Shown piece by piece: positions 16,774 to 53,890 of a DNA stretch of 64,000 bases (positions within the stretch are counted from its first letter, which is position 1; every line of letters begins with the position of its first letter). Source of the DNA: a virus; the UHGV virus genome UHGV-0179428; one strand, written 5' to 3'. Position numbers and translations under genes: made by a program. The notes under the pieces were generated by a model. It searched no databases. It was not told the origin of the DNA and saw nothing but the letters and a program-made list of their open reading frames with translations.

Positions 16774-17172
16774 ATGGCAATTGGATTACCTGCGCTACAA
16801 GCGCGGCTAAATAACATTGACAACACTGCATTGAAGAATACGGGTGCAGTACAAAACTATATTCGTGGGAAAGCGACGAACAACGCAGACTTATTCGGTG
16901 GGCAAGCTCGCAACCACTATGACTGTGGTGGGAGCTGTAGCTGGACCTGTTCGAGCTGTTCTGGTGGTTGTACAGGGAACGCATCAGGCGGCTGTGGTTC
17001 TTCCTGTTCTGCAAACTGTGTATCAGGTTGTAGTGCAGGCTGTAGTGGATGTTCGAATACCTGTTCTGGTGGCTGTTCAGGAAGCTGTACGGGGAGTTGT
17101 TCTAACTCGTGTGTAGGAAACTGTTCTGCAGGCTGCTCAGGTAGTTGTTCTGGTGGGTGTTCTGGGAGGTAA
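16774..17172 (+). CDS. Cys-rich repeat peptide B (132 aa), candidate radical-SAM substrate/precursor
   Basis: ATG after AGAGGTGA; N-terminus MAIGLPALQARLNNIDN, junction DCGGSCSWTCS, about 80 aa of C-x3-C repeats. Confidence 0.8.
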   Translation: MAIGLPALQARLNNIDNTALKNTGAVQNYIRGKATNNADLFGGQARNHYDCGGSCSWTCSSCSGGCTGNASGGCGSSCSANCVSGCSAGCSGCSNTCSGGCSGSCTGSCSNSCVGNCSAGCSGSCSGGCSGR

Positions 17173-17174
17173 TT

Positions 17175-17381
17175 GTGATTAGCCTTAAGAACCTTCGTGA
17201 TCGGTTAGTAACAGCGGAAGGGTATATTACGACCGCTAACGCAAACAACTATATTGCAAACCAGGGCACTGTGTCTTCAACCAATAACCTTGCCGGTTTA
17301 CCTTTAAGCCATTATAACTGTAACGGTGGATGTAGCTGGTCGTGCAGTGGTAGCTGTAGTAAAGGTGCGGGGGGAAGGTAA
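17175..17381 (+). CDS. Cys-rich peptide C (68 aa), short paralog of A/B
   Basis: GTG at 17175 five nt after GGGAGG, three nt after the stop of peptide B; N-terminus MISLKNLRDRLVTAEG, junction NCNGGCSWSCSGSCS, then only 8 more residues. The track start at 17145 is an upstream in-frame artefact. Confidence 0.65.
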   Translation: MISLKNLRDRLVTAEGYITTANANNYIANQGTVSSTNNLAGLPLSHYNCNGGCSWSCSGSCSKGAGGR

Positions 17382-17530
17382 CTAAGCCCTCCAGTGGTAG
17401 TATGTCTATTACGCAATAACCGAGTTAATTGTACGGGTTTACTACTGAGTTTCAAGTCACCGGTAGGCAATGGCGCGGTGGTTTCTATACCCTGAATGTC
17501 CGTTTGACCGTGAAATAATTGGAGCAATCA

Positions 17531-18418
17531 ATGAAGAATGATTTACATTTAGCGTACAAAACAATTTTCAATCATCCACTTCACATTTCTTCCCCTGATT
17601 CCGTACGTGCACACTTAGCAGATGAAGTTCGTCTGCTGACTCAGTTGCCGGGCGAATGGCCTAAAGTGCGCGGACGTTTCTTTACCGATCGTAAAAACTA
17701 TCGTGTAGAAAATACGTTTAAGATTCGTGATCTGACGGCAGAAAGTGTAGTGGTCTTTACCGGTGACTCCGAGTTGCGTGGTAAACTGGTTGCGGGTAAA
17801 TATTTCTTTAGTGACGGGATTTTGAATAACTCCGTAGATATGGAATTGTTCTTTACCCCATTTGAAGAAATGGGCGCAAAACCGGTTGCCCGTCGTTGGT
17901 GGTCACCGGATTACTTAGGCTCGTTCCCGTATTTCTTTACCCTGGTAACACCAGAAACGAAGAACTATTTCGATACGGAATCGTATATCGAAATTGAAGG
18001 GTACGAAGCGTTAGGGATTAATTGCTTAGCGGATTTAATGGCGTATAGCTATAAGTTCGTGTGGGATCGTGAACGTTCCGTGTGGGTTGCCCTGACGGAT
18101 GAACACGAAATCACAAAACGCATCCGTAAGCCTTGGATGCAGCATTTGATTCAAACGCGTATTGGCGAGCATCCGTCAACAGAAGCGGATCTGGCAAAAC
18201 TCGTTAGTTTCTTAATGACGAAAGTCACGTTAACTGACGAAGAGAAAGCAGCAGTGTCGGCGGTGTTGGACCGTAACGTAACGTTAGCGGATTTAGAACG
18301 TTTAAATGTCCGTTATAAAGACCTTAACCGTGTTTTGGAAGCGTATAACTCTCCATTTTTGTTAACCCCTGGTGCTAACGTAGACGACGATCCTTTGTTC
18401 GCCATTGATTATATTTAA
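17531..18418 (+). CDS. hypothetical protein (296 aa) inside the Cys-peptide/radical SAM locus
   Basis: ATG at 17531 seven nt after GGAG (track start 17519 is TTG); no recognisable motif; sits between the precursors and the radical SAM genes. Confidence 0.75.
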   Translation: MKNDLHLAYKTIFNHPLHISSPDSVRAHLADEVRLLTQLPGEWPKVRGRFFTDRKNYRVENTFKIRDLTAESVVVFTGDSELRGKLVAGKYFFSDGILNNSVDMELFFTPFEEMGAKPVARRWWSPDYLGSFPYFFTLVTPETKNYFDTESYIEIEGYEALGINCLADLMAYSYKFVWDRERSVWVALTDEHEITKRIRKPWMQHLIQTRIGEHPSTEADLAKLVSFLMTKVTLTDEEKAAVSAVLDRNVTLADLERLNVRYKDLNRVLEAYNSPFLLTPGANVDDDPLFAIDYI

Positions 18419-18439
18419 AAACGACCGGAGTCACCTGCA

Positions 18440-19363
18440 ATGACAACCAATGCAGAACCAAGGTTATCGAATCGTTTATACGATAAACCCACCGTATTGT
18501 CCGTAGTCGCTACGTCCAAGTGTAACCTGGATTGTAGCTTCTGCGGTGGAGCCTATTACATGAATCGTGAAGATTCTCCGCGAGAGTTTCAACGTGAGCG
18601 AATTTTGGAAGCGCTGGAAGCTAATCCAACCATTACCGAAATTCAGTGGACGGGTGGTGAGCCATTACTGGCAACCCGTAAAATTGAGGCGTTTGTTGAC
18701 GAATTAAAAGTGATTCGTCCAGAACTCAAACACCAGTTGTATACCAATGGCTTAAAGATGCGTAAATCGCATCTCCCGTTGCTAAAACAGTTTGACAATG
18801 TCTACGTTAGCATCGATGGGTTTAAGTCGTCTGAGCGCCCGTTTATGCGCTTTATTGACGAAGGCTGTTACGAAGCACTGGAAACGATCTACGAGCTGGA
18901 TAATGTCCAGACTTGGGGTGTCCTGACACGGGACCGTTTAGGGGACAAACGCTGGCACGAAGATATTATTCAGCTGCACAGCGCGATTTACCATTACGGT
19001 TTCCGTGCAATGACGTTACTCTTAGATGCGAAAATGCCAAAACCTTTATCGCCTGACCACGTCATGAACTTTATTTACGGCTACTATCAGGTTCAGGACA
19101 ACATTGAACGGCTGAATGTAGTAAATAGTCGTGAATGCGGCTTTACGGTAAGTAAAGTGTTTGAAGAAGGGTGTAACGTTTGCAGCGAAAGTCTTTGGAT
19201 TAATGCAGACGGTGGTGAGCACCAACTCCAGAATGCACCTAACGTTCTGGAATCGGGATGTAACCAACTGGCCTTCTCTATCGGTGTAGAGGCGTACGAA
19301 TATATTCGTCGTGTGGTGATGGCAGGGCGTAATAGAGGGGCGGCAAATGAGTCAAGTAAATGA
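18440..19363 (+). CDS. radical SAM enzyme (307 aa)
   Basis: CNLDCSFCGG (CxxxCxxC) near the N-terminus, GGEPLL glycine-rich motif, VSIDGFKSSERP segment, additional C-terminal cysteines (CGF...CNVC...GC). Confidence 0.8.
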   Translation: MTTNAEPRLSNRLYDKPTVLSVVATSKCNLDCSFCGGAYYMNREDSPREFQRERILEALEANPTITEIQWTGGEPLLATRKIEAFVDELKVIRPELKHQLYTNGLKMRKSHLPLLKQFDNVYVSIDGFKSSERPFMRFIDEGCYEALETIYELDNVQTWGVLTRDRLGDKRWHEDIIQLHSAIYHYGFRAMTLLLDAKMPKPLSPDHVMNFIYGYYQVQDNIERLNVVNSRECGFTVSKVFEEGCNVCSESLWINADGGEHQLQNAPNVLESGCNQLAFSIGVEAYEYIRRVVMAGRNRGAANESSK

Positions 19364-20669
19364 ATTCCCTAAGCAGTTAACGTATCAGATCGTAACCAAC
19401 CTTTCGTGTAACCTGGACTGCGAATATTGTTACGAACGTAAGTACCCGCGTAACAACAAAGCGGCTGACATTGTTGATTTCTTACACGCCTGTTTTGAAC
19501 GTGATAAAAACGAACCGAATGTTGAAGTTATTATCGACATTATCGGTGGTGAACCGTTCATGCAGCCTAAACTGCTGTTGGCTGCGTTTGAAACCGCTGA
19601 GCAGTTGTGTAAAGAACACAACCGACCGTTTATGTTTAGTATCTCCACGAACGGAACGCTGTTAGATCGTCCGTTGAACCGTGAGATTGTAGAACGTTGG
19701 AAAGATAAACTTTCGGTTGGGGTTTCGATTGATGGCTTACCTGAATCCCATGACCGTTATCGTATCTTCACAACAACACGCCAGGGTTCTTACGAAGCCG
19801 CAGTACGTGGCTATAACTACTTAAAAGAGGTTGGCATTGCAGAGCTCGGCGTAAAAGCAACCTTTACGTTAGAAACGCTGCCGTTCTATGCTGCGGGGAT
19901 GAAGTCATTAATTGACATTACTGGCGGTGGGACAATTTCTGGAAACGTAACTTTCGAAGACGTTATGCCACGTAGCATGGCGACGTCAATCGCTTTACAG
20001 ATGATGGATGTGATAGATTACTGGGTTGAGAAAGGATTACACACCAACCCACGTAATATCCTATCGCATATCATTCCAGAAGGGTTGGATTTCGACACGA
20101 TTTGGGAACCGAACTGGCGTGACCAGTTACTGTATAATGACACCGTACGGTTGAACCCGGAACGCTTACGTCCGTTCTGTGGGACGTTAACGCACATGAC
20201 GTGCTTAGGGTTTGACCGTAAGATCTTTGGCTGTAACCGCTTTATGTCAACGGTAACGTCGCGTTCTGCGGTGTTTGAGTTGGTAGGTCGGGAATTCGTC
20301 AGTCTGGACAACGGTAAATTGTTAGAAGAGATTCAAACGCAATATACCAACTACCCAGAGACCTGTTTAGGTTGTCCGATGAAACACGCTTGTGGTAGCT
20401 GCGCAGCGGCTTCTTACGAGAACGGGGAAGGAACGTTAGAAGACCGTAAAGCGTATCACGCTGAACGACGTCAGTGTGGCTGGACGACAGCGAAACTGAT
20501 GGTGGCGGAATACTGGAAACAGAAGATGGGTACGACGTCAGCAAAAGCGTTCCACGACACGAGTATGTGTTATTGCCCACGCTGTGTTCGTGAACGTGCC
20601 CAAAAGGAAAAATTATTAAGAGAAGCCAAAGATGAAACCAATTCTGATCAACAATATTACGAAGCGTAG
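19347..20669 (+). CDS. radical SAM enzyme with SPASM-like C-terminal Cys cluster (440 aa), anSME/peptide-maturase-like
   Basis: CNLDCEYCY (CxxxCxxC), GGEPF, SIDGLPESHDRYR, C-terminal CLGCPMKHACGSC plus further cysteines; overlaps the previous gene by 17 nt. Confidence 0.8.
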   Translation: MSQVNEFPKQLTYQIVTNLSCNLDCEYCYERKYPRNNKAADIVDFLHACFERDKNEPNVEVIIDIIGGEPFMQPKLLLAAFETAEQLCKEHNRPFMFSISTNGTLLDRPLNREIVERWKDKLSVGVSIDGLPESHDRYRIFTTTRQGSYEAAVRGYNYLKEVGIAELGVKATFTLETLPFYAAGMKSLIDITGGGTISGNVTFEDVMPRSMATSIALQMMDVIDYWVEKGLHTNPRNILSHIIPEGLDFDTIWEPNWRDQLLYNDTVRLNPERLRPFCGTLTHMTCLGFDRKIFGCNRFMSTVTSRSAVFELVGREFVSLDNGKLLEEIQTQYTNYPETCLGCPMKHACGSCAAASYENGEGTLEDRKAYHAERRQCGWTTAKLMVAEYWKQKMGTTSAKAFHDTSMCYCPRCVRERAQKEKLLREAKDETNSDQQYYEA

Positions 20670-37441: not shown

Positions 37442-38224
37442 TTAAACACGTGAACCGTATATTGCACCTACTGCGTCCCATCTTGGCGCATTACCAGTAA
37501 CAGCTTTACCAGCTGCTCCGCCGTTATATTCTGTACCGTTACCTTGAGTATTACATCTTCCTCCAGCAGCACCGACATTACCACCCGAACCGCCTGTATA
37601 TGCACTAAGAGACCCCTCACCAACAGATCCTCTACCAGGAGCGGAAATAGTACCAGCAGCTGCACCGGAACTCATATGAGAGGAAGACCCACCAGCACCG
37701 AATGGGCGACCACCGCCACCACCAAATATTAGTCTACCCCTGTTACCGCCACCACCGCCGCCACCGCCTCCGGCAATAGCGCCACGGTTGGTTATACGCA
37801 GTCTGTTTCCTATTCCGTTCTGTATTGCGGTTCCACCTGCACCGCCTGGTGAGTTAGAACCGCCGTTGCCTCCTCTGCCGTATACTGTAACCCCAGGATT
37901 GATGATGAGGGTAATATACGAATTTGGAAGATTGCTAGGGAATTCTAAACAAGGAACCGTGCTACTATGGGACACTAAATCCCCCGTAATAGTCACAACG
38001 ACAGCAGTAGAGCCTAAAGAACGTAAATAGTTAATAAGCGTATCTTTATTGTAATTGTGATTAGCCCCGATCGAATACTGAACCTCTTTTGATTTTCCCG
38101 CCAATTGCGACATCCAGCCTGGAACCGGCACACCAAGTGTGCGCATCGCGCCAGACATCCATTCGTTACCAGCTTCAGCTTTTGCTGAAGAACCAATCCA
38201 ACCACCTACGCCGACAACTGCCAT
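37442..38224 (-). CDS. T-even gp38-like tail-fibre adhesin with glycine-rich motifs (260 aa)
   Basis: N-terminus MAVVGVGGWIGSSAKAEAGNEWMS and multiple poly-Gly blocks (GGGGGGGGG, FGGGGGRPFGAGG, AAGKAVTGNAPRWDAVGAIYGSRV), recalled from memory as gp38-like; immediately downstream of the tail-fibre gene. Confidence 0.7.
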   Translation of the reverse strand: MAVVGVGGWIGSSAKAEAGNEWMSGAMRTLGVPVPGWMSQLAGKSKEVQYSIGANHNYNKDTLINYLRSLGSTAVVVTITGDLVSHSSTVPCLEFPSNLPNSYITLIINPGVTVYGRGGNGGSNSPGGAGGTAIQNGIGNRLRITNRGAIAGGGGGGGGGNRGRLIFGGGGGRPFGAGGSSSHMSSGAAAGTISAPGRGSVGEGSLSAYTGGSGGNVGAAGGRCNTQGNGTEYNGGAAGKAVTGNAPRWDAVGAIYGSRV

Positions 38225-41200
38225 TAGGATCTTCCTTTAATTTCGTTAACCTCTTGACGCAACGCTTTCATACCCTCTACTAACAGCGCAATAACGCCAT
38301 TGTAGTTTAGACGTAAACGTTTTTCGCCTGAAATGGCATCATCATCCTCAGACACAAGTTCAGGTAACGCTTCTAATGCGTCCTGAGCAATTAGACCTAC
38401 AGAAGTCTGCCAGCCGTCATCAGGATGCTGAATTTCGTACAAATAACCGGTTAGTAACTCTAACCGATCCAAAGCTTTATCCAGCTTCACCAGATTACGT
38501 TTGTTACGACGGTCAGAACGAATCTGTACGTCGTTAAACGAACCGTTACCGTTGCCAGTAACGTTATGTCCAAAGTTTACTTGGCCGTTAGAATTATTAA
38601 AAGACAACGGGCGTAATCCGTTCCAGGAACCCGCTGCGGCTTGTCCGGCGTCGGTTACTAAGAAATAGGTATTGGCACCGTCGTTACGTAAAATAAAACC
38701 GTAGGTACCGTAAGCGATTCGAAAATCAGGGTATTTAGTGGCCAATTTACCGTTAACGGTTAAATCGCCGCCTATAGTACCGCCCCCCGAAGGTAGTGCA
38801 CCCACTTCTGCAGCAGTTGGCTTGTTTCTCGTATTGTAAGCACGACGCCAGCCTGGTGAGTATGTATCGCCGTTAAATACGTAGATAAACTCCGCATTAG
38901 TGAGTGCGCCACCGACGCTCGCCGTTGTGGCAGTCGTTATACGGATCGTGTAGTTGTTTGTGCTATTACCGTTACTAATCACTTCTATAACGGCCCCAGC
39001 TAACGGAATAACACCACAACCCGTCTCGCTGTGTGGTATGGACGCACTAGCGGCATAAGCCCATGCACAGCGAGCAACCCACGATCTTGTGGTAAATGCG
39101 CCGTTATTTTTCAATAACGTCACTAGCTGTGCTGTAGTTATTGCGCCGCCATCTTTGCCAGTTTCTAACCAACCACTAGGCGATGCCGGACAACCTATAT
39201 CGGCAGGTCCTAACGATATATTTCTAGTGCCGTCAAATGCGATACCGTTAATGGTTCTTGCGGTTTGCAACTTTGTTGCCGTGGCTGCGTTTCCGGTGGT
39301 CGCCTGATTACCTGTTTGGTTTACTCCAGGTAAACTGATGTCTTTAGTACCATCAAAAGCTACACCACCTATATTTCGCGCAGTCTGGAGCTTAGTCGCT
39401 GTCGCCGCATTCCCCGTAGTCGATTGGTTACCGGTTTGGTTTACGCCAGGAAGATTAACGTCTTTTGTCCCATCGAAAAGCACACCGCCGATCTTACGTG
39501 CGGTTTGTAACTTAGTAGCGGTCGCTGCATTACCTGTCGTATTCTGGTTGCCTTGCTGGTTAACGCCCGGTAAATTGATATCACCTGTACCGTCAAAGGT
39601 AACGCCTCCGATCCTGCGAGCGGTTTTCAGTTTCGTCGCGGTAGCGGCGTTGCCGGTAGTATCTTGATTACCGGTGGCATTTACGCCAGGAATGCTGTCA
39701 CGGGCAGTATAAACTTGTGCCCAATCTGACCACGGCGCATCAGCCGTATCACGTCGACTACGAATATAAACTGGCGCGTGCGCACCACTCGTCCCCGACC
39801 ATCCGATTAACAGCTCGCCTTCACCTAGCGCAGTAGAACCACCCAAATGCAATAAGTTACCATAAGCGGTTGGATAACCGTTATTGTAAACTTCGTACAT
39901 CTGAATACCGGGTGTACCTTTGTTTGATCCAGTCAGTGCAGTAACACGTCCACGTCCTACCAACGTGTTGATATTGATGTCTCTAGACCCATCAAATTTC
40001 ACACCGTTGATGTTTCGAGCCGTTTGTAATTTGGTTGCGGTTCCCGCGTTCCCAGAGGTGTTTTGATTACCCTGTTGGTTCACACCAGGGAGGCTAATGT
40101 CGCCGCTACCGTCGAAACTTACACCGCCGATTAAACGGGCTGTTTTCAGTTTTGTTGCCGTTGACGCATTACCTGTCAATTCGCCCGATAACCCTTTTGC
40201 AAAGGTCTGTTTTTCTGCCCACGTATGCGCTGCATTCAATACGGGCATCTGGCGGCTAGTAATAGTACGTTTACCCTTTTCACCAGCGACGCGAACAGCA
40301 AAGAAGCGATAGTTAGCAGTAGACACTGTACCACGCCAGACCAACATACTCCGGCCAGTACCGGTGTCCTCCGACGCCCCTACAAGAATAGTGACCAAGT
40401 TACCGTCGATAACACCCCAATCCATTCCCGCAGGAATGTTTTTCATGGTATTCAACGGTGTACTTATCATCTGGCCAGGAACGAAGTCGAATGTTTGCCA
40501 GTCTAACGGATCGACCTTAGCAGCAACCCCACCGATCCCTAAAGTCAGCGGGAGTGAATAGGATGTGAAAATCTCTCGCCATTCGCTCCAGGCGTTTCCT
40601 GTACGAATTCGTTGGAACTTGCGACCTTTCGAAGTTGCGCCTGTACCGTATGTGGTATAATTTTGTTCAACACCTGAACCGTCTAAGCGTAAGGTAACTT
40701 CGCAAACGCCTAGCAAGGTTGCGCCAGCAGAGTCTGTTAACGGACTGTCTGTAGCCTCACCGGTAACACTAAAGCGACCTGGTTTAGTTAAGTCGTTAAA
40801 GCTACCCTTATAGTAGGCACCGTCTACCTGATACCCAACCTGAATCCAATCTTCCCACTGCGGATTAGACGAATCCCAAGTCGCAGTCAAACCACGGACA
40901 TACATCGTACCATGTCGTGTGGTGTATCGTTGCAACCGTCCGTAAAGACCACCTTCCATGACTTCTAATACGCCTTGCGCATTACCGCCCTCTTCAGGAT
41001 AATGTCTGTCGAACACCGCTAACGAACTGGACGAGTTACGCCAGTTACCCATGTGCTCAGCGCCGCCTAAGGAGTTCAGATCGATCGATGTAGATAACGG
41101 GCGTACACCGGTAGTTACCATTCTCCACGGTGACCACGGGCCATTAGTTCCGTTCCACGCACCTGACAACATACGGTTGTACACGTTACCATTACGGCAG

Positions 41201-42666
41201 GTAAAACGTTGCGCTCCACTGTAGTTGCCCGCTTTATACACTTCCAGATAACCGACTGCACCGTCTTCTGGGAAGTGTTTTGCCATCGACGCATTGGTTG
41301 ATGTCGACTTGGACCATGTTCCTGTGTAATTAGCATCTGGAGCAAATGTGTTAATATCAGCATCTACAGGCATTTCGCCACGGAAACGCAGATAGGTATC
41401 AGGAGATAGGCCGATATTGCGAGCAAAGGTTTCTTTATTGGGGATATCGGCACCGTTAGAATTTTTCTGTAATGCGCCGTTTGCTTTATCAACGGTGGGT
41501 TTCAAACCCAGGAAGTTAATGATATCCGCAGTTGACCCTTTCGCTAACAAGGATCTGGCAGTTTCTGTAAAATCGGTTAACTCGACTTTATTAGAGCCCG
41601 TGAAATACAGGAGTTTGTTTGCTGCACTTGTAACCGCAGCGATTGCGGTGAGTAACGGACTGAGAGGTTGTTTCTGAGCAAGCTCCTCAGTGATCGTTGT
41701 TGCGAAGTTAGGGTCATTACCTAACGCCTCTGCTAATTCCGCTAAGGTATTTAACGTCTCGGGTGAGGAACCAACCAATTCAGCAATCGCGTCACGCACC
41801 CAGGACGTTGTGGAGATGCTCGTGTCATTCGAGTCCTTCGGCGGTTTTGGTGTTGTCGGTTTACCCGTAAAATTCGGCGAATGTTTATTGGCTTTTAACT
41901 GTAATTCGTCGTTCAGCTGTTTAACAGTGGACGGCGTGGCAGCCTCCGTCACGGATTCGCTAGTCAGGGTATCGTTAAGTTTAACAATACCTTTACCGGT
42001 TGTAGTAGCGTCAACTAAGCCTTGGGCGGCGATTTTCTCCGCACGTAGGGCAGCTGACTCCGAACGCGTAGCTGCCCCTTCTGAGCTTTCTTTATCTTTC
42101 GCGACCTGTGCAGCAATCTTCTCCACTGCACCTTTACTGGCCTCAACTGAAGCCGCAGTATTTTCAACGCTGGTAGCCGCCTGTTGAACTTGTCCGGCCT
42201 GTTGCGTAACCGTTTCTGCTTTCTTAGTTACATCAGCCGCCGTAGCCGTCACAGATTGTTCGGATGTGGCGACAGCTTGAGCCTTCTCATTTACTGATTG
42301 TGAAACAGTATCTACGGCAGTTTTCGCTGCTAAAACCTCAGCGTGTTTTTTGTTAACCTCCGCAGTTTTAGTGGCAACGGTTCCCGCTTGCTCATTAACT
42401 GTGGAAGCTAACGTGTCAGTTTGTTGCTTCGCGGTTTCCGCTAAATTTTTTGCTTGCGCAGCTTCTGTTGCAGACTGTTGTGATTTGGCCGCAGCCGTTT
42501 GTGCATCAGCAACCGCGTTTCTGACGGTGTCAATGTCCGCAACGATTTCGCGGACGGGTAACTTATAATCTTTTTCGTCTTTCGAAAAAAGTAAAACGCC
42601 TTCGCCGATATCCCCGGTGTATGGACGCAAATCGTGTAAACGAATTTTCTTTACCGCTTTAGCCAT
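38224..42666 (-). CDS. long tail-fibre protein (about 1480 aa) with C-terminal intramolecular chaperone (peptidase S74-like) domain
   Basis: Start taken as ATG 42666 (MAKAVKKIRLHDL); about seven 37-aa repeats GNQ.TTGNAATATKLQTAR.IGGV.FDGT.DI.LPGVNQ; C-terminal segment SDRRNKRNLVKLDKALDRLELLTGYLYE...GLIAQDALEALPELV typical of self-cleaving chaperone domains. Confidence 0.85.
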   Translation of the reverse strand: MAKAVKKIRLHDLRPYTGDIGEGVLLFSKDEKDYKLPVREIVADIDTVRNAVADAQTAAAKSQQSATEAAQAKNLAETAKQQTDTLASTVNEQAGTVATKTAEVNKKHAEVLAAKTAVDTVSQSVNEKAQAVATSEQSVTATAADVTKKAETVTQQAGQVQQAATSVENTAASVEASKGAVEKIAAQVAKDKESSEGAATRSESAALRAEKIAAQGLVDATTTGKGIVKLNDTLTSESVTEAATPSTVKQLNDELQLKANKHSPNFTGKPTTPKPPKDSNDTSISTTSWVRDAIAELVGSSPETLNTLAELAEALGNDPNFATTITEELAQKQPLSPLLTAIAAVTSAANKLLYFTGSNKVELTDFTETARSLLAKGSTADIINFLGLKPTVDKANGALQKNSNGADIPNKETFARNIGLSPDTYLRFRGEMPVDADINTFAPDANYTGTWSKSTSTNASMAKHFPEDGAVGYLEVYKAGNYSGAQRFTCRNGNVYNRMLSGAWNGTNGPWSPWRMVTTGVRPLSTSIDLNSLGGAEHMGNWRNSSSSLAVFDRHYPEEGGNAQGVLEVMEGGLYGRLQRYTTRHGTMYVRGLTATWDSSNPQWEDWIQVGYQVDGAYYKGSFNDLTKPGRFSVTGEATDSPLTDSAGATLLGVCEVTLRLDGSGVEQNYTTYGTGATSKGRKFQRIRTGNAWSEWREIFTSYSLPLTLGIGGVAAKVDPLDWQTFDFVPGQMISTPLNTMKNIPAGMDWGVIDGNLVTILVGASEDTGTGRSMLVWRGTVSTANYRFFAVRVAGEKGKRTITSRQMPVLNAAHTWAEKQTFAKGLSGELTGNASTATKLKTARLIGGVSFDGSGDISLPGVNQQGNQNTSGNAGTATKLQTARNINGVKFDGSRDININTLVGRGRVTALTGSNKGTPGIQMYEVYNNGYPTAYGNLLHLGGSTALGEGELLIGWSGTSGAHAPVYIRSRRDTADAPWSDWAQVYTARDSIPGVNATGNQDTTGNAATATKLKTARRIGGVTFDGTGDINLPGVNQQGNQNTTGNAATATKLQTARKIGGVLFDGTKDVNLPGVNQTGNQSTTGNAATATKLQTARNIGGVAFDGTKDISLPGVNQTGNQATTGNAATATKLQTARTINGIAFDGTRNISLGPADIGCPASPSGWLETGKDGGAITTAQLVTLLKNNGAFTTRSWVARCAWAYAASASIPHSETGCGVIPLAGAVIEVISNGNSTNNYTIRITTATTASVGGALTNAEFIYVFNGDTYSPGWRRAYNTRNKPTAAEVGALPSGGGTIGGDLTVNGKLATKYPDFRIAYGTYGFILRNDGANTYFLVTDAGQAAAGSWNGLRPLSFNNSNGQVNFGHNVTGNGNGSFNDVQIRSDRRNKRNLVKLDKALDRLELLTGYLYEIQHPDDGWQTSVGLIAQDALEALPELVSEDDDAISGEKRLRLNYNGVIALLVEGMKALRQEVNEIKGRS
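39230..39700 (-). repeat. tandem about 108-111 bp coding repeats inside the tail-fibre gene
   Basis: Visible DNA-level periodicity corresponding to the 37-aa TATKLQTAR repeats; a second shorter block lies near 40010-40230. Confidence 0.55.
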
Positions 42667-42864
42667 GATATTTAATTCTCTATCTGGAGCTAAAAGATCT
42701 GGGAAGGTAAAACACCCCCCCAACATTTTTATAAGCGGACTATTATACTGGTTTTAATCCATCATCTTCTAACGTGAAAGTGATGTCCAATTCCGCGTTC
42801 TCATGATCTGGGTTTACTAAGTCTTGATAAAAGTTTGTTTTGGCCTCCGTTACCGGTAAAACCG

Positions 42865-43517: not shown

Positions 43518-43892
43518 TCAGACCGTTAGTTCTCCACATAACTCAACATCGATACCGAACGTCATTCCCACTTCTTGAAGTTTGTTCGCCAGTAGGTGAC
43601 GATGACAAAACTTACCTGCGGGACAATAGCACATCAAAACCAAATCTTCGTGTCTAAGCAACGAGACCAACGTTTCGGCATCGGTATCTAACAGTCGTTC
43701 GAGTTTGTACAAATACTTTACCGTGTATTCACGCTCAGCGCCAGCGTCTTGGGCAGAATTTTTATACGCCATTAGGAAATCCCAGTCGGGGGCGAGTTCC
43801 TTTCGCCCTGACTTCACAGTGATATCCACTGCGTGAAATCCTTTTTGCTTAGCTAACCGCCACTTAGCGAGTTGTAGCGTCCAGATACGCAT
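43518..43892 (-). CDS. hypothetical protein (124 aa), possibly DUF488-like
   Basis: C-terminal LVLMCYCPAGKFCHRHLLA loosely resembles the DUF488 CHR..LA motif; weak. Confidence 0.5.
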   Translation of the reverse strand: MRIWTLQLAKWRLAKQKGFHAVDITVKSGRKELAPDWDFLMAYKNSAQDAGAEREYTVKYLYKLERLLDTDAETLVSLLRHEDLVLMCYCPAGKFCHRHLLANKLQEVGMTFGIDVELCGELTV

Positions 43893-44089
43893 TAGGAACG
43901 AGTCTGCGATTCAGCCATCAACGCACAGCTTCTTACAGCCTGTGCATGAAGCTCTGTACCGGGTGTATAATCCTTTATACAGTCCTGGTACAATTCACGT
44001 TTCGTTTCTAAAGTACGAGAGTCGTACTCGGCATTCGCTAAAGCCCCTGCAATAACGATAAAAACTACAATCGGCAACCAAATTTTCAT
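43892..44089 (-). CDS. small membrane-anchored protein (65 aa)
   Basis: N-terminal hydrophobic helix (IWLPIVVFIVIAGALA); paralogous to the next ORF. Confidence 0.55.
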   Translation of the reverse strand: MKIWLPIVVFIVIAGALANAEYDSRTLETKRELYQDCIKDYTPGTELHAQAVRSCALMAESQTRS

Positions 44090-44298
44090 TTCCCTCCTCC
44101 CATTCGTTTAGCGTATTCCGTACACGCCATTACTAATTCAGCGTAACGTGGGCTATCTACAGTAGTGCCTGACATACATTCACGATAAAGGGAGTCTCTA
44201 CGTGCTTCGTCAGACGTCTTAACGTAGAACATCAACATCGCTACAATCAACGCAGTTGAAACGATTGCTGAAATGATATATCCGTCATTTATTTTCAT
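44086..44298 (-). CDS. small membrane-anchored protein (70 aa), tandem paralog
   Basis: Hydrophobic N-terminal helix; conserved R..LY..C...T......A....C segment shared with 43892-44089. Confidence 0.55.
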   Translation of the reverse strand: MKINDGYIISAIVSTALIVAMLMFYVKTSDEARRDSLYRECMSGTTVDSPRYAELVMACTEYAKRMGGGK

Positions 44299-44815
44299 CT
44301 ATAAAGCACCAAGGTTCTGGATAAAAGTCTGTAAGTAAATCAACGTAAAAACTATGTAAATTTGTTAGCCTTATAACACACCCTAACAAATCGTGATCGG
44401 CGCGATGATAAATCACTACAGAAGTTTTTGATAATCGTTTAACATGTATAAACCCATCATCTTTTATTCTGCGATACAGCATCTTAAAATCGATTTCACC
44501 TACCGTATCAGGTTCACCTACGACGGAAAACCGAATATGTGGCCGTTCGCTACCTTGGGTTGATAAAAATTCCTCTGTCGTCATTGCATAAACCTGCCCT
44601 AAAAAGGATAGGTGGGGAATTACTTCTTTACGCAACTCGCTGCTCGAAATCTTAGCAAAAACCTGGCGTTCCGTTAAGTGCATTAACTCGCCTAATCTCC
44701 CCAAGTCTTTGTTATATCCCAAAAAAAGAGCCACTTTCTCGTCATGCGTAATAGGCGGCCATTCGACCGCCTTTGCCCGACGTTGCTTAAACCAACTCAC
44801 AAGTCGCGCTATCAC
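44285..44815 (-). CDS. hypothetical protein (176 aa)
   Basis: ORF. Confidence 0.6.
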   Translation of the reverse strand: MIARLVSWFKQRRAKAVEWPPITHDEKVALFLGYNKDLGRLGELMHLTERQVFAKISSSELRKEVIPHLSFLGQVYAMTTEEFLSTQGSERPHIRFSVVGEPDTVGEIDFKMLYRRIKDDGFIHVKRLSKTSVVIYHRADHDLLGCVIRLTNLHSFYVDLLTDFYPEPWCFIDENK

Positions 44816-44817
44816 GC

Positions 44818-45510
44818 TTAGTAATCCTCTTCCTGATTAACTACCGATTGGATACGCGTTGCGACTTCGCTAGTGTCCAGGTCAGTTTCGTCGACCTTAT
44901 CCACGAGCTTCTGTACTTTACGTACATGAGATTCGGTAACATCAAAACGACCACGATCGGCTAACAGCAACGTTACCATGTCCTTACGTGTAACCATCAG
45001 TTCTTCTTCAGGTAAGTGTAAGGATTTGTCTAACAGCCCAGAATGCATGAAGTTTTCCAGTAAGCGTTCTTCTCCCTGGTCGAAATCATAACGTTCGTTA
45101 GGTGCAGCAACAAAAGCATAACCGAAGTAGTTTTCTTCTGTCTCACGTAGCGATTTAATGATTTTGTCACCGTGTTGGCAGAAATCACTTAACGTGTAGT
45201 CGTCAAGTGTTGCCACGATGGTTTCTGCTTGTACACCGTTATCTGTTTCGTACAGATGCGCAACCCATAGTTTCCAGTTACGCGGTTCGTCAAACAGACC
45301 ACCGATTAACATATCAGTTGCTGCCATGCGCATACGCGGCGACGTTGTGAACTGGAAACCACGGCCCGCGTACGGGCCGATAGGACGAATAGAACTACCG
45401 ACGAAGGTAATGCGGTTTAACGCATTTTCAGCAATGGTATGCGCGGTACGGTTAGCAGCCGCTTTCGGGTTATACTTTTTGTTACGAGGTTTCTTTTGTT
45501 TGGTAGCCAT
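44818..45510 (-). CDS. hypothetical protein (230 aa)
   Basis: ORF with basic N-terminus. Confidence 0.6.
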   Translation of the reverse strand: MATKQKKPRNKKYNPKAAANRTAHTIAENALNRITFVGSSIRPIGPYAGRGFQFTTSPRMRMAATDMLIGGLFDEPRNWKLWVAHLYETDNGVQAETIVATLDDYTLSDFCQHGDKIIKSLRETEENYFGYAFVAAPNERYDFDQGEERLLENFMHSGLLDKSLHLPEEELMVTRKDMVTLLLADRGRFDVTESHVRKVQKLVDKVDETDLDTSEVATRIQSVVNQEEDY

Positions 45511-46498: not shown

Positions 46499-47020
46499 CT
46501 ACGGGTTATAAGGCAGCGGTTTGCAATCCCGCTTTTTCAACTCCTCTACTAACTCAGGTAACGTACACCAGCGTTTAAATTGGTTGTTGGCTTTAAAGTG
46601 GCTAAGAATTTCCTCTACACGTTCAATAGACCAATTCCCTTTACCTACGTTATCTAAATCTTTACGTAGCGAGAGCGTCTCAATGGTAAACGCTAACTCT
46701 GAACTGTCCGAGTGGTCGTACAACAATCTTACTGGCGTGGACTGATGCAGCGTAACACGCCACCCTGACTCCTTAGCCCAATAGACATCCTTAATCCGAC
46801 CACTGACGTCAATTAAAGAGCTAATATAAGTCCATTCTCCTTCCAGTTTGTTCTCTTCGGCAGTTAATGCTTCTTCTAATCGCAAAGAGTTAGGGGACGG
46901 AATCCACCAACCGTACTTACCGTAATAATCGTCTATTACAGTAATACCTTCGTAATACAGATATTGTGTTTTTGTATTAACGAATATTTCATCGCCAATT
47001 AAGACAGCGTTTATCTTCAT
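46499..47020 (-). CDS. hypothetical protein (173 aa)
   Basis: ORF. Confidence 0.6.
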   Translation of the reverse strand: MKINAVLIGDEIFVNTKTQYLYYEGITVIDDYYGKYGWWIPSPNSLRLEEALTAEENKLEGEWTYISSLIDVSGRIKDVYWAKESGWRVTLHQSTPVRLLYDHSDSSELAFTIETLSLRKDLDNVGKGNWSIERVEEILSHFKANNQFKRWCTLPELVEELKKRDCKPLPYNP

Positions 47021-47505
47021 CGTAAGTGCTTCCTGTAAAACAAGTCATAGGTGGTCGAGCTAGATGGATCAATAGAACCTACCAATGGCATAATTTTCTT
47101 TTCTGATATTCCAGTTGCCCAAGCAGCCCGCGCAAAGTCGCCACCAGAACCCGTTGTCCAAACCGCATTTTTATTTATTACAAACGTTTTAAACTTATCT
47201 GCTACTAACGTCAACCAATGTGTTTCTCTAGCCGTAAAAATGACGATTTGATCGTATATTCGCTCTTTTTCGATAAGATCTGCAAACAGGGGCTCAACTT
47301 TCTTACGTTTATCCTCGTCTAAATATTTTTCTATAGCAGCGGTAATCGACATTTTCCAAAACTCGGTGTCCAGTACACGTTCACCCGTGTAGAAAACAAA
47401 CTTGTTTTTGTGTTTATGCAGTTTGGGCAATTCTTTAACCGTACCAGCATAATCCACAAGTCGGTCAGCTAAAATGTAATCCTTTGTTACTAATACCGTT
47501 GTCAT
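47017..47505 (-). CDS. HslV-like (proteasome beta-type, Ntn-hydrolase) peptidase (about 162 aa)
   Basis: Start ATG 47505 after GAGGTG gives MTTVLV (Thr after initiator Met, as in HslV MTTIVSV); GSGGDFARAAWA resembles HslV GSGGPYAQAAARA. Confidence 0.45.
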   Translation of the reverse strand: MTTVLVTKDYILADRLVDYAGTVKELPKLHKHKNKFVFYTGERVLDTEFWKMSITAAIEKYLDEDKRKKVEPLFADLIEKERIYDQIVIFTARETHWLTLVADKFKTFVINKNAVWTTGSGGDFARAAWATGISEKKIMPLVGSIDPSSSTTYDLFYRKHLR

Positions 47506-47521
47506 CACGCACCTCGAAGAA

Positions 47522-47556
47522 AAATAAAAGTACCCTCTCTCCAGACGGAGAGAGGG
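47522..47556 (-). terminator. rho-independent terminator downstream of gene 47564-47833
   Basis: Hairpin CCCTCTCTCC-AGAC-GGAGAGAGGG followed on the minus strand by TACTTTTATTTTT. Confidence 0.65.
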
Positions 47557-47563
47557 GCACTGC

Positions 47564-47833
47564 TTAAATCTTACGACTGCTACCGTAGCAGCCACAACCT
47601 GCTGTCGTTTTCGCAGCACTGGCCGGTGCTAACGCAACCATCGTGCCGTCGTCCTTAACAATCTGCAAGTTACCTGCGCGAATCAGACCTTTAAAGGTAA
47701 TCTTCACACCCTTACGTAAACTCTTCACATTGAAGCCGTCGAGTTTGAGTGTTTTAACTTTTTCAGGTTTACCTTCTTCGTAATAGGAAAGAACATTACC
47801 TGCACGTTTTTCAACAATATAAATCTTACCCAT
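47564..47833 (-). CDS. hypothetical small protein (89 aa)
   Basis: Promoter-like box and hairpin upstream, terminator downstream; lysine-rich with C-terminal CGCYG. Confidence 0.6.
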   Translation of the reverse strand: MGKIYIVEKRAGNVLSYYEEGKPEKVKTLKLDGFNVKSLRKGVKITFKGLIRAGNLQIVKDDGTMVALAPASAAKTTAGCGCYGSSRKI

Positions 47834-47906: not shown

Positions 47907-48215
47907 TCAGTATAGCGCGATGTTAACCGACTTACCAGGTAGCGGGAAATGCTGTAGTTCTATTGACCGAAGTTTCCTGTCAATCGTCAGTATTTCATCA
48001 ACGTTGGGCGTAAGACGGAATACAGCGCGCGGTAGCGTGAAAGGCACGTTCGTCGAGCAGTTGTTTAACAGTAACTGATCCTGAGAATAGTCAATTTCTA
48101 CCACCCTCGCAATTACCCAACGTTCGTGAATCTCACCGCCTAGCGGTGCGGCGAGTGCCCGTTGCAAGCGCTGTGAATTCGTTTCGTTGGTATTAGTGTG
48201 GTTTTGGTTCGACAT
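47907..48215 (-). CDS. hypothetical protein (about 102 aa)
   Basis: Track start at 48245 is TTG; ATG at 48215 (MSNQNH) reduces the overlap with the upstream gene. Confidence 0.5.
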   Translation of the reverse strand: MSNQNHTNTNETNSQRLQRALAAPLGGEIHERWVIARVVEIDYSQDQLLLNNCSTNVPFTLPRAVFRLTPNVDEILTIDRKLRSIELQHFPLPGKSVNIALY

Positions 48216-48528
48216 AAGTTTCCCCAAACATGTATACGTGTTCAATCACGTATGCAGATTCTGTTTCAAGCGTCGGTTTAGCGACACGCCACTTCCATGC
48301 ACCGGTTTCAGGATCTTGCCAGGACAACAAAAGAGAACCCTCACAAATTTCAGAGGTATCGACCTCAGGGTGGAACAGCATGAATTCGTTTTCGTTGTCG
48401 TCCACTACGACGAATTGACCTTCTTCTACCCTTTCGAACTTAGCAACGCCTACTACAGTTGCTGGCTCGCCAACAGTAAATACCATTTCTTGTTTTGGTA
48501 AATCACGGTGAATCGCACTTAACCACAT
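48193..48528 (-). CDS. hypothetical protein (111 aa)
   Basis: ORF. Confidence 0.6.
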   Translation of the reverse strand: MWLSAIHRDLPKQEMVFTVGEPATVVGVAKFERVEEGQFVVVDDNENEFMLFHPEVDTSEICEGSLLLSWQDPETGAWKWRVAKPTLETESAYVIEHVYMFGETYVEPKPH

Positions 48529-48585: not shown

Positions 48586-48620
48586 AAATAAATTATCCCT
48601 CTCTCCGTTTGGAGAGAGGG
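48586..48620 (-). terminator. rho-independent terminator downstream of gene 48626-49132
   Basis: Hairpin CCCTCTCTCC-GTTT-GGAGAGAGGG, near-identical stem to the terminator at 47533, followed on the minus strand by ATAATTTATTTTTA. Confidence 0.6.
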
Positions 48621-53242: not shown

Positions 53243-53866
53243 TTAGTTCGCTAAAATGTGCGTAACAATCTCTGCGGCTTTCAAACGGTAATCGTCATTC
53301 TGAGTTACCGGTAATAACGCGTGAAGACAACCGCCTTCTGTTAAGATGTGGTGTGCGAAACGATAATGGTCGCGTAAGCCATCCCAACATTGGTTGTCCT
53401 TTAGATACTTAACAGTAAGTACCTCGTCATCCCAATTCTTACCTTGTTCTTCTACACGTTTCTTAAATCGTGCTAACGCTGTTGGGTAATCAACATCTGT
53501 CCAAACATAAAGGTCAGGCGTGTGGAAATGACGAGTTAGTTTACGTTGGAAAACCACGTCCTTACCATCTGTCCCCTGATAAACAATCGTTGAAGGACAG
53601 AAGCGATCGAAAATAACGACATCGTATTCATCAACAACATGGTCCAACGTGTGAAGGAAATCATCACACATTGCTTCGGCAATTTTTGTTTTCGAAGCAG
53701 ACTGTACAACCAAGCTACGTGCACGAATGCCCGCCTCAGTTTCAGACGTCGGATGGTTCCGAATACAAACTTTTAATCCTGCGGACTCCAACATCGCTTT
53801 TACCATTTTACACAACGTTGATTTCCCAGAAAAATCAGGGCCATCAATAGACACTGTCTTAAGCAT
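53243..53866 (-). CDS. tmk: thymidylate (dTMP) kinase-like nucleotide kinase
   Basis: P-loop GPDFSGKST and FDRFCPSTIVYQG (DR(Y/F)..S...YQG motif). Confidence 0.65.
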   Translation of the reverse strand: MLKTVSIDGPDFSGKSTLCKMVKAMLESAGLKVCIRNHPTSETEAGIRARSLVVQSASKTKIAEAMCDDFLHTLDHVVDEYDVVIFDRFCPSTIVYQGTDGKDVVFQRKLTRHFHTPDLYVWTDVDYPTALARFKKRVEEQGKNWDDEVLTVKYLKDNQCWDGLRDHYRFAHHILTEGGCLHALLPVTQNDDYRLKAAEIVTHILAN

Positions 53867-53890
53867 TATTGTTTTACCTTTTTACGCACG

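Follow-up and report, generated by a model that had tools for sequence, protein, structure and literature searches.

The 64,000-nucleotide stretch of virus genome UHGV-0179428 that we analysed (the window) carries on its minus strand a gene for a 162-amino-acid (aa) protein resembling the bacterial peptidase HslV, followed by an overlapping gene for a 173-aa partner (Table 1). The HslV-like protein begins MTTVLVTKDYILADR, opening with MTT, and its residues 118-132 read TGSGGDFARAAWATG; the counterpart segments of E. coli HslV are MTTIVSV at the start and IGSGGPYAQAAARAL further on. An earlier prediction made from the sequence alone (the original prediction) had picked out both resemblances, accurately, and had proposed an orphan HslV-like peptidase that might pair with host HslU or ClpX. 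The open reading frame (ORF) itself is real. A mechanical ORF list carries it out to a GTG at 47619, a start that we rejected: the added stretch spans a terminator-like hairpin (47533-47556, followed by a T-run) and overlaps the upstream 89-aa gene. We preferred the ATG because it is preceded by a Shine-Dalgarno-like site, because the identical database protein P0001 is also 162 aa long, and because the family aligns from Met1 (99 of the 101 representatives defined below).

Taken alone, the MTT start and the GSG motif could be chance likenesses. With the single HslV-like sequence as query, Pfam returned nothing at E<=10, NCBIfam no relevant match and a phmmer search of the PDB no match, and a profile of 9 sequences was too weak (hhalign probability 8%; HslV in the PDB at a non-significant E=0.31). 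The protein does match two phage families, PHROG 23394 (unknown function; 1.6e-10, over its full length) and PHROG 1040 ('peptidase HslV family'; 1.5e-6). An exhaustive HMMER search, with an alignment of 20 sequences from three phage lineages as query, gave 152 cluster representatives at E<=1e-3, nearly all aligning from residue 1. The window protein and 100 representatives (n=101) form the family set used for all conservation counts, and mean column identity across it is 13% only. The top PDB matches of the 101-sequence profile were HslV (4hnz, 1.1e-14; T. maritima, 7.5e-13; E. coli, 1.8e-9), followed by archaeal and eukaryotic 20S beta subunits (about 1e-6) and BPH, the Betaproteobacteria proteasome homologue (6.5e-6). 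Against E. coli HslV, hhalign gave a probability of 95.6% (E=1.2e-8), and 20 of the 101 members reached Pfam Proteasome (PF00227) unaided. Identity to cellular HslV is about 13-19%. Profile drift as the source of this signal was ruled out with a core-only profile, built with 28 sequences from hits at E<=1e-10: HslV 4hnz still came first (6e-8), all other listed matches were HslV or proteasome beta, and hhalign against HslV gave 79.7%.

The predicted structure agrees with the profiles. A first AlphaFold2 (AF2) model, from 20 sequences, was mediocre (predicted local distance difference test score 72.5) and was replaced by one from the 101 sequences. This high-confidence model predicts an alpha-beta-beta-alpha N-terminal nucleophile (Ntn) sandwich with helices H1-H4, in which H1 takes up residues 48-62 and H2 residues 64-81, and in which a short H2-S7 linker (the pore loop) recalls that of HslV. 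By sequence and by structure alike, no match is better than HslV. Because of the deep-profile and structure evidence the HslV resemblance is significant, and profiles and model together show a predicted proteasome-beta/HslV superfamily fold of compact 'group I' architecture, with HslV as the closest solved relative.

The hhalign register against E. coli HslV equates Thr2 with Thr1, Asp14 with Asp17, Lys28 with Lys33, Gly41 with Gly45 and Gly119-Ser120-Gly121 with Gly-Ser124-Gly. Position 2 is Thr in 94 of the 101 representatives and Ser in the other 7, and 77 start with MTT. Asp14 is invariant (101/101), as are Gly119 and Gly121; Lys28 is present in 99, the oxyanion Gly41 in 95, Ser or Thr at position 120 in 97 and Asp146 in 88. 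The ratio of nonsynonymous to synonymous substitution rates (dN/dS) between the HslV-like gene and its Enterobacter orthologue is 0.13. Near-fixed catalytic residues and purifying selection are the signature of a selected, active Ntn threonine peptidase, and they support the view that the protein is a catalytically competent N-terminal-threonine peptidase whose predicted constellation is intact. By analogy with E. coli HslV, which has no propeptide, we infer that removal of the methionine alone would expose the nucleophile. Its proposed identity as an HslV-like Ntn threonine peptidase is thus upheld by the deep profiles, by the AF2 model, whose fold came out as the Ntn sandwich, and by the conserved catalytic constellation; with hidden Markov models (HMMs) the outcome was divided, the family profiles matching HslV and the single protein having no relevant Pfam or NCBIfam match.

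Neither the window lineage nor any close relative is represented in the GenBank phage collection that we searched. Close relatives of the HslV-like protein (66-100% identity) lie on contigs of about 222-226 kb, some of them in Salmonella assemblies. The window is colinear, at a nucleotide identity of 73-91%, with NZ_CP134650.1, a 222,441-bp circle recorded as a 'plasmid' of Enterobacter ludwigii. That record has genes for phage tail and tail-fibre proteins, for an S80 prohead protease and for a family B DNA polymerase; since this colinear 222-kb relative carries those phage genes, the window comes from a jumbo phage lineage. We used NZ_CP134650.1 as the complete genome of a close relative (about 84% identical). 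The circular 'plasmid' and the contigs in Salmonella assemblies suggest extrachromosomal carriage (pseudolysogeny or a carrier state) or co-sequencing. Distant full-length homologues, at 25-30% identity, are found in Erwinia Machinavirus and Derbicusvirus phages, Cronobacter phage CR5 and Salmonella phage pSal-SNUABM-04, some labelled 'peptidase HslV family' or 'HslV-like ATP-dependent protease'. Synteny with these phages runs through a GNAT acetyltransferase and a Dam methylase to the gene-128 homologue (44818-45510 in the window, by tblastn).

The original prediction had also stated that no AAA+ HslU-like gene is visible in the window, and this is confirmed. A tblastn search of the window with three phage HslU proteins found nothing; hmmsearch and phmmer (--max) with phage and E. 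coli HslU against window ORFs of at least 50 aa gave a best E of 0.27, which is noise; and the sole canonical P-loop ORF in a Walker-A scan of the window encodes 212 aa (53246-53881, minus strand, GPDFSGKS near the N terminus). This ORF is no AAA+ unfoldase; its equivalent in two related contigs (L012 and L013) is annotated Thymidylate_kin. HslU and AAA+ searches over the complete 222-kb Enterobacter relative found none either; the one large P-loop ORF there (16946-19450) was considered and rejected, being SMC/Rad50-like and not AAA+. In four more IMG/VR contigs from this lineage, the 10 kb on either side are likewise free of HslU-like ORFs. The gene is therefore an orphan in the sense first proposed, with no HslU in the window or in the complete close relative.

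Sister phages do encode HslU. EarlPhillipIV, CR5 and pEa_SNUABM_43 each have, about 2.3 kb downstream of the HslV-like gene, a protein of 578-687 aa with Pfam AAA_2. Its match to E. coli HslU (E=1e-45 to 1e-52) covers residues 4-105 and 242-408, which are precisely the halves of the AAA module on either side of the I-domain, and an unrelated insert of 290-390 aa stands in place of that domain. The C terminus of these proteins (...TLRKTLRG or ...TLRKN) is unlike that of host HslU (...EDLSRFIL). The swapped I-domain and altered C terminus suggest phage-specific substrate recognition and docking, as far as sequence comparison can tell. Three metagenomic lineages (L011, L013 and L014) also have this gene; three others (L010, L015 and L016) have no HslU within 10 kb of the locus. 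The co-occurrence scan in IMG/VR took in 80 of at least 315 loci. Phage pSal-SNUABM-04 has been said to have HslV and no HslU (PMC7823757). Its ORF121 (L106:8965-10698; MT710307.1 106144-107877), labelled 'putative DnaA protein', is a Pfam AAA_2 protein that matches E. coli HslU at 1.7e-46, with the match again split around the I-domain; because ORF121 is a clear HslU homologue, we consider the published statement an annotation miss.

The place where an HslU gene would be expected in the window can be pinpointed. According to the gene order in L002, L011, L013 and L014, relatives carry gene 129, HslU and prohead protease between the gene-128 homologue and a DUF488-N3a family gene; the same interval of the window holds one 176-aa ORF, two small ORFs and DUF488 only. 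The S80 prohead protease of the Enterobacter relative is encoded elsewhere in its genome. The ancestral module was probably HslV-like peptidase, partner and phage HslU, with the HslU block missing here exactly between conserved flanks. A gene of the DUF488-N3a family lies downstream of HslU in L011, L013 and L014; in L012 it is found on the upstream side of the HslV-like gene. Further along, a 1500-aa tail-fibre-like ORF (38224-42726, minus strand) contains several internal copies of a ~GNQxTTGNAATATKLQTAR...FDG repeat and is followed by a glycine-rich 260-aa ORF (37442-38224, minus strand); this receptor-binding block occupies the place of the relatives' HslU and prohead protease.

The partner is more constant than HslU. 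A homologue stands at the same position in 12 of 12 loci, whether HslU is there or not (HMM E 1e-10 to 1e-82), with junctions to the peptidase gene of -10, -4, -1, +2 or +4 nt. It matches PHROG 25529 at 1.3e-18, is labelled hypothetical in deposited records and gave 8 clusters in our homology search. Within the lineage its identity is 91-95%, and a dN/dS of 0.067 marks strong purifying selection. It has no similarity to Pfam or to PDB sequences. Paired matches in the viral fold library raised the idea that it is a second, inactive beta-like subunit; at the sequence level this found no support, as hhalign against the HslV-like profile gave 0.1-0.2% and neither PDB nor Pfam a match. Its C-terminal region has a loosely conserved hydrophobic-Pro-aromatic motif (LPY, LPF, APF, IPY), and it is speculation on our part that this may recall the docking tails of proteasome activators and HslU.

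A second proteasome-like paralogue explains the paired matches: it is the reason why the viral fold library gives two matches, unequal in length, for several jumbo phages. In the Enterobacter relative it is encoded at NZ_CP134650.1 88426-88926 (L005:38426-38926), outside the region covered by the window. It is a core PHROG 1040 member (1.9e-35; A3 HMM 4.4e-21) with its own MTT start, and it is homologous to ORF1 of pSal-SNUABM-04 (2.4e-19). The paralogue, the HslU of close-family phages and the universal 173-aa partner all lay beyond the view of the original prediction.

In 20S and HslV structures, H3 and H4 make the ring-ring contacts and H1 and H2 form the apical face. Variation in the HslV-like protein is unevenly spread over these elements. 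Within the lineage, identity is 47-68% in H1, H2 and S7-S10, 85-100% in the N-terminal catalytic sheet and 75-95% in GSG/H3/H4; between lineages the variable H1/H2/S7-S10 segment falls to 5-13% vs 30-45% for the conserved parts. The loop equivalent to HslV Lys28, a residue that reportedly has a role in docking of the HslU C-terminal tail, varies across the family. The HslV residues that line the pocket for this tail are 54, 57, 79, 80 and 114 (PMC6429459). They map to the variable H1-S10 segment, in helices where the register is uncertain.

Two peptidase allele types, about 74% identical, exist in the lineage, and most flanking genes are 90-99% identical. One contig (L019) has flanks 96-99% identical to the window and a peptidase at 73.5%, a contrast that indicates allele exchange. 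Host-tracking of the two alleles was ruled out, both types being found in Salmonella assemblies. Two other ORFs, both near the HslV-like gene, are hotspots of allelic divergence against flanks of 90-99%, at 48193-48528 (111 aa; 68-88% amino-acid identity) and 44285-44815 (176 aa; 72-98%).

The terminator-like hairpin upstream of the HslV-like gene has a twin at 48597-48620 (minus strand), with an identical 10-bp stem and a T-run after each copy. The pattern CCCTCTCTCC-N4-GGAGAGAGGG matches twice in the window against 0 expected in shuffles. The twin hairpins look like an intrinsic terminator used twice, or like a regulatory element, on either side of the genes that precede the HslV-like gene.

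Table 1. Features of the HslV-like locus in the window, and HslU homologues of related jumbo phages
Feature	Position	Strand	Remarks
HslV-like Ntn threonine peptidase, coding sequence (predicted function)	47017..47505	minus	ATG at 47505, stop at 47017 (stop included); 162 aa
Shine-Dalgarno-like GAGGTG	47510..47515	minus	4 nt 5' of ATG; read from sequence
Thr2 codon, predicted N-terminal nucleophile after Met removal (= HslV Thr1)	47500..47502	minus	hhalign
Asp14 codon (= HslV/proteasome Asp17)	47464..47466	minus	hhalign register; invariant
Lys28 codon (= Lys33)	47422..47424	minus	hhalign register; 99/101
Gly119-Ser120-Gly121 codons (= HslV Gly-Ser124-Gly / proteasome Ser129 motif)	47143..47151	minus	ggttctggt
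Terminator-like hairpin (CCCTCTCTCC-N4-GGAGAGAGGG) and T-run	47523..47556	minus	Directly upstream of HslV-like gene
173-aa partner, coding sequence (PHROG 25529, unknown function)	46499..47020	minus	ATG overlaps HslV-like stop (ATGA)
Interval where relatives carry gene 129, HslU and prohead protease	43518..44815	minus	Between gene-128 homologue (44818-45510) and DUF488-N3a
DUF488-N3a family protein	43518-43892	minus	8.4e-12; far edge of HslU-less interval
Jumbo-phage HslU homologues	L001:8596-10650, L002:8965-10701, L003:8808-10871, L011:10534-12291, L013:12744-14489, L014:12757-14949		

We compared the HslV-like protein with HslV, PPH, BPH and connectase. HslV (ClpQ), the peptidase of bacterial HslUV (MEROPS T1B/PF00227), has no counterpart of the 173-aa partner in cellular hslVU operons; the window protein differs from it in its low identity, in being phage-encoded, in the lack of HslU in its lineage and in a probably unconserved HslU-tail pocket region. 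A survey of the superfamily by Fuchs, Alva and Lupas describes PPH, of about 140 aa and without H2, as the first truly viral proteasome-like member, and notes AAH and CPH in phages; its Table 1 has no phage HslV (PMC8665760). Like PPH, the window protein is phage-encoded, of compact group I and with a conserved triad; because it has H2 (as well as H1) and is 162 aa long, it is not a typical PPH. Distant family members of about 144-152 aa do have a shortened H1-H2 region (about 14 fewer residues), as described for PPH. BPH is cellular and forms heptameric rings with a long acidic H2-S7 pore loop, whereas the window protein is viral, has a short H2-S7 linker and comes with a dedicated partner gene. 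The closest counterparts are the homologues in CR5 and the Erwinia Machinavirus and Derbicusvirus phages (PHROG 1040/23394), which share the syntenic block and the coupled partner; these phages also encode their bona fide HslU, which the window lineage is without.

We favour, at a probability of about 0.55, the reading that the HslV-like protein works together with its co-translated partner as a self-compartmentalised peptidase that needs no HslU. Host methionine aminopeptidase would remove Met1 and expose the threonine as nucleophile, and contacts along the conserved H3/H4 face would join the subunits in a double ring. The particle of the window lineage would work without a phage unfoldase, much like BPH, and the partner would serve its assembly, gating or substrate delivery. 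Candidate substrates are host proteins, phage proteins or peptides made during infection. There is a precedent in BPH, which descends from HslV and no longer depends on HslU (PMC5777263).

Several observations weigh against this reading. HslV alone is a poor protease (PMC6429459) and BPH was inert in vitro (PMC5777263), so that unfoldase-free function is not established for the superfamily, and the short H2-S7 pore loop resembles that of gate-kept HslV, not that of BPH. The partner is conserved at 91-95% where the H1-S10 segment of the peptidase is at 47-68%, and there is no covariation between them, which weakens the case for partner docking on the apical H1-S10 face. Searches of Pfam, the PDB and the HslV profile found no recognisable fold or motif in the partner, and it is no simple replacement for HslU, since the HslU-containing lineages have it too; it could be an assembly factor, an inhibitor, an adaptor or even a substrate. 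Finally, the genome-wide absence of HslU is read from the complete relative, at about 84% identity, the genome of the window itself being seen over 64 kb.

The best placed of the alternatives, although we think it improbable, is that the phage dodecamer docks on the hexamer of host HslU (ClpY) to give a hybrid ATP-dependent protease for phage-chosen substrates. The family is associated with HslU in sister phages, so that its reliance on an unfoldase of the HslU type is probably ancestral. Hosts among the enterobacteria have hslVU (as at the E. coli locus), real activity of HslV needs HslU or HslU C-terminal peptides (PMC6429459), the short pore loop is like that of gate-kept HslV (PMC8665760), and no phage AAA+ gene is present in the window or the complete relative that could serve instead. 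Against this stands the low identity to cellular HslV, 13-19%. Three further observations are mild points against canonical docking: the Lys28-equivalent loop is unconserved; the phage and host HslU tails differ, so that the docking pocket of the family would have co-evolved with a different tail; and no part of the protein varies more than the segment to which the pocket positions map (47-68% in one lineage), yet HslU of Enterobacteriaceae is highly conserved. Peptidase identity and orphan status, as originally predicted, are borne out, and pairing with host HslU or ClpX is not supported.

It is doubtful, although more credible than the ideas that follow, that the partner is an ATP-independent cap, adaptor or activator, the invariant core then being the peptidase and this protein of about 175 aa, and HslU with its swapped I-domain an optional addition. 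Here the partner might dock through its hydrophobic-Pro-aromatic tail, in the manner of an HbYX or HslU tail. If this were true, the window lineage would be a natural minimal phage 'proteasome' for host takeover or counter-defence, and its fast-diversifying apical surface would reflect an arms race.

Second paralogues, present both in the complete relative and in pSal-SNUABM-04 (ORF1) and matched by the paired hits of different length in several jumbo phages, open the idea of a phage 'mini-proteasome', in which the window peptidase and the PHROG 1040 paralogue form a heteromeric particle or two specialised ones. We consider this quite unlikely: in the relative some 93 kb separate the two genes, which are not co-transcribed, each protein has its own MTT start and catalytic residues, so that neither resembles an inactive alpha-type subunit, and the second paralogue is not seen within the 64-kb window.

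Phages neutralise host proteases, as T4 PinA does Lon, and an orphan protein with a fast-evolving apical surface could likewise serve as a decoy or an inhibitor: it would titrate the HslU of the host or, through mixed assembly, poison the rings of host HslV, shielding phage proteins from HslUV and making catalysis irrelevant. The nucleophile, Asp, Lys, oxyanion Gly and GSG are, however, near-absolute across 101 divergent representatives, and a pure decoy is very unlikely because this conservation points to selection on catalysis; mixed rings are implausible at so low an identity to host HslV, and sister phages that bring their own HslU fit an active protease better. Least likely of all is an Ntn enzyme with non-degradative chemistry (a connectase-like ligase or transpeptidase, or an amidohydrolase) whose target would be one particular protein of phage or host, perhaps the partner: connectase lacks H1 and H2, and its active site is covered by an S3/S4 insertion of two helices (PMC8665760), whereas the window protein has both helices, no such insertion and HslV as its best match, which makes connectase-like chemistry unlikely, and the true HslU of sister phages points to degradation.

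Proteasome-like peptidases of phages are known from annotation and one bioinformatic survey, none with an assigned function, and our literature search found no experimental study of any phage proteasome-like protein of this kind. The fold is already known, in that the annotation of distant homologues anticipated it. What is new is the core module of peptidase and partner, the optional phage HslU with a swapped I-domain, the genome-level absence of HslU, the second paralogue and the diversifying apical segment; the published statement on pSal-SNUABM-04 is corrected as well, as this phage does encode HslU. The family offers a natural comparison, in which the same peptidase and partner occur with HslU in Machinavirus and Derbicusvirus and without an unfoldase in the Salmonella/Enterobacter lineage. 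This comparison bears on how an HslV-type ring fares without an AAA+ motor, on the borrowing of a host motor and on the role of the partner, and the answers could reveal how large phages remodel the proteome of host or phage during infection.

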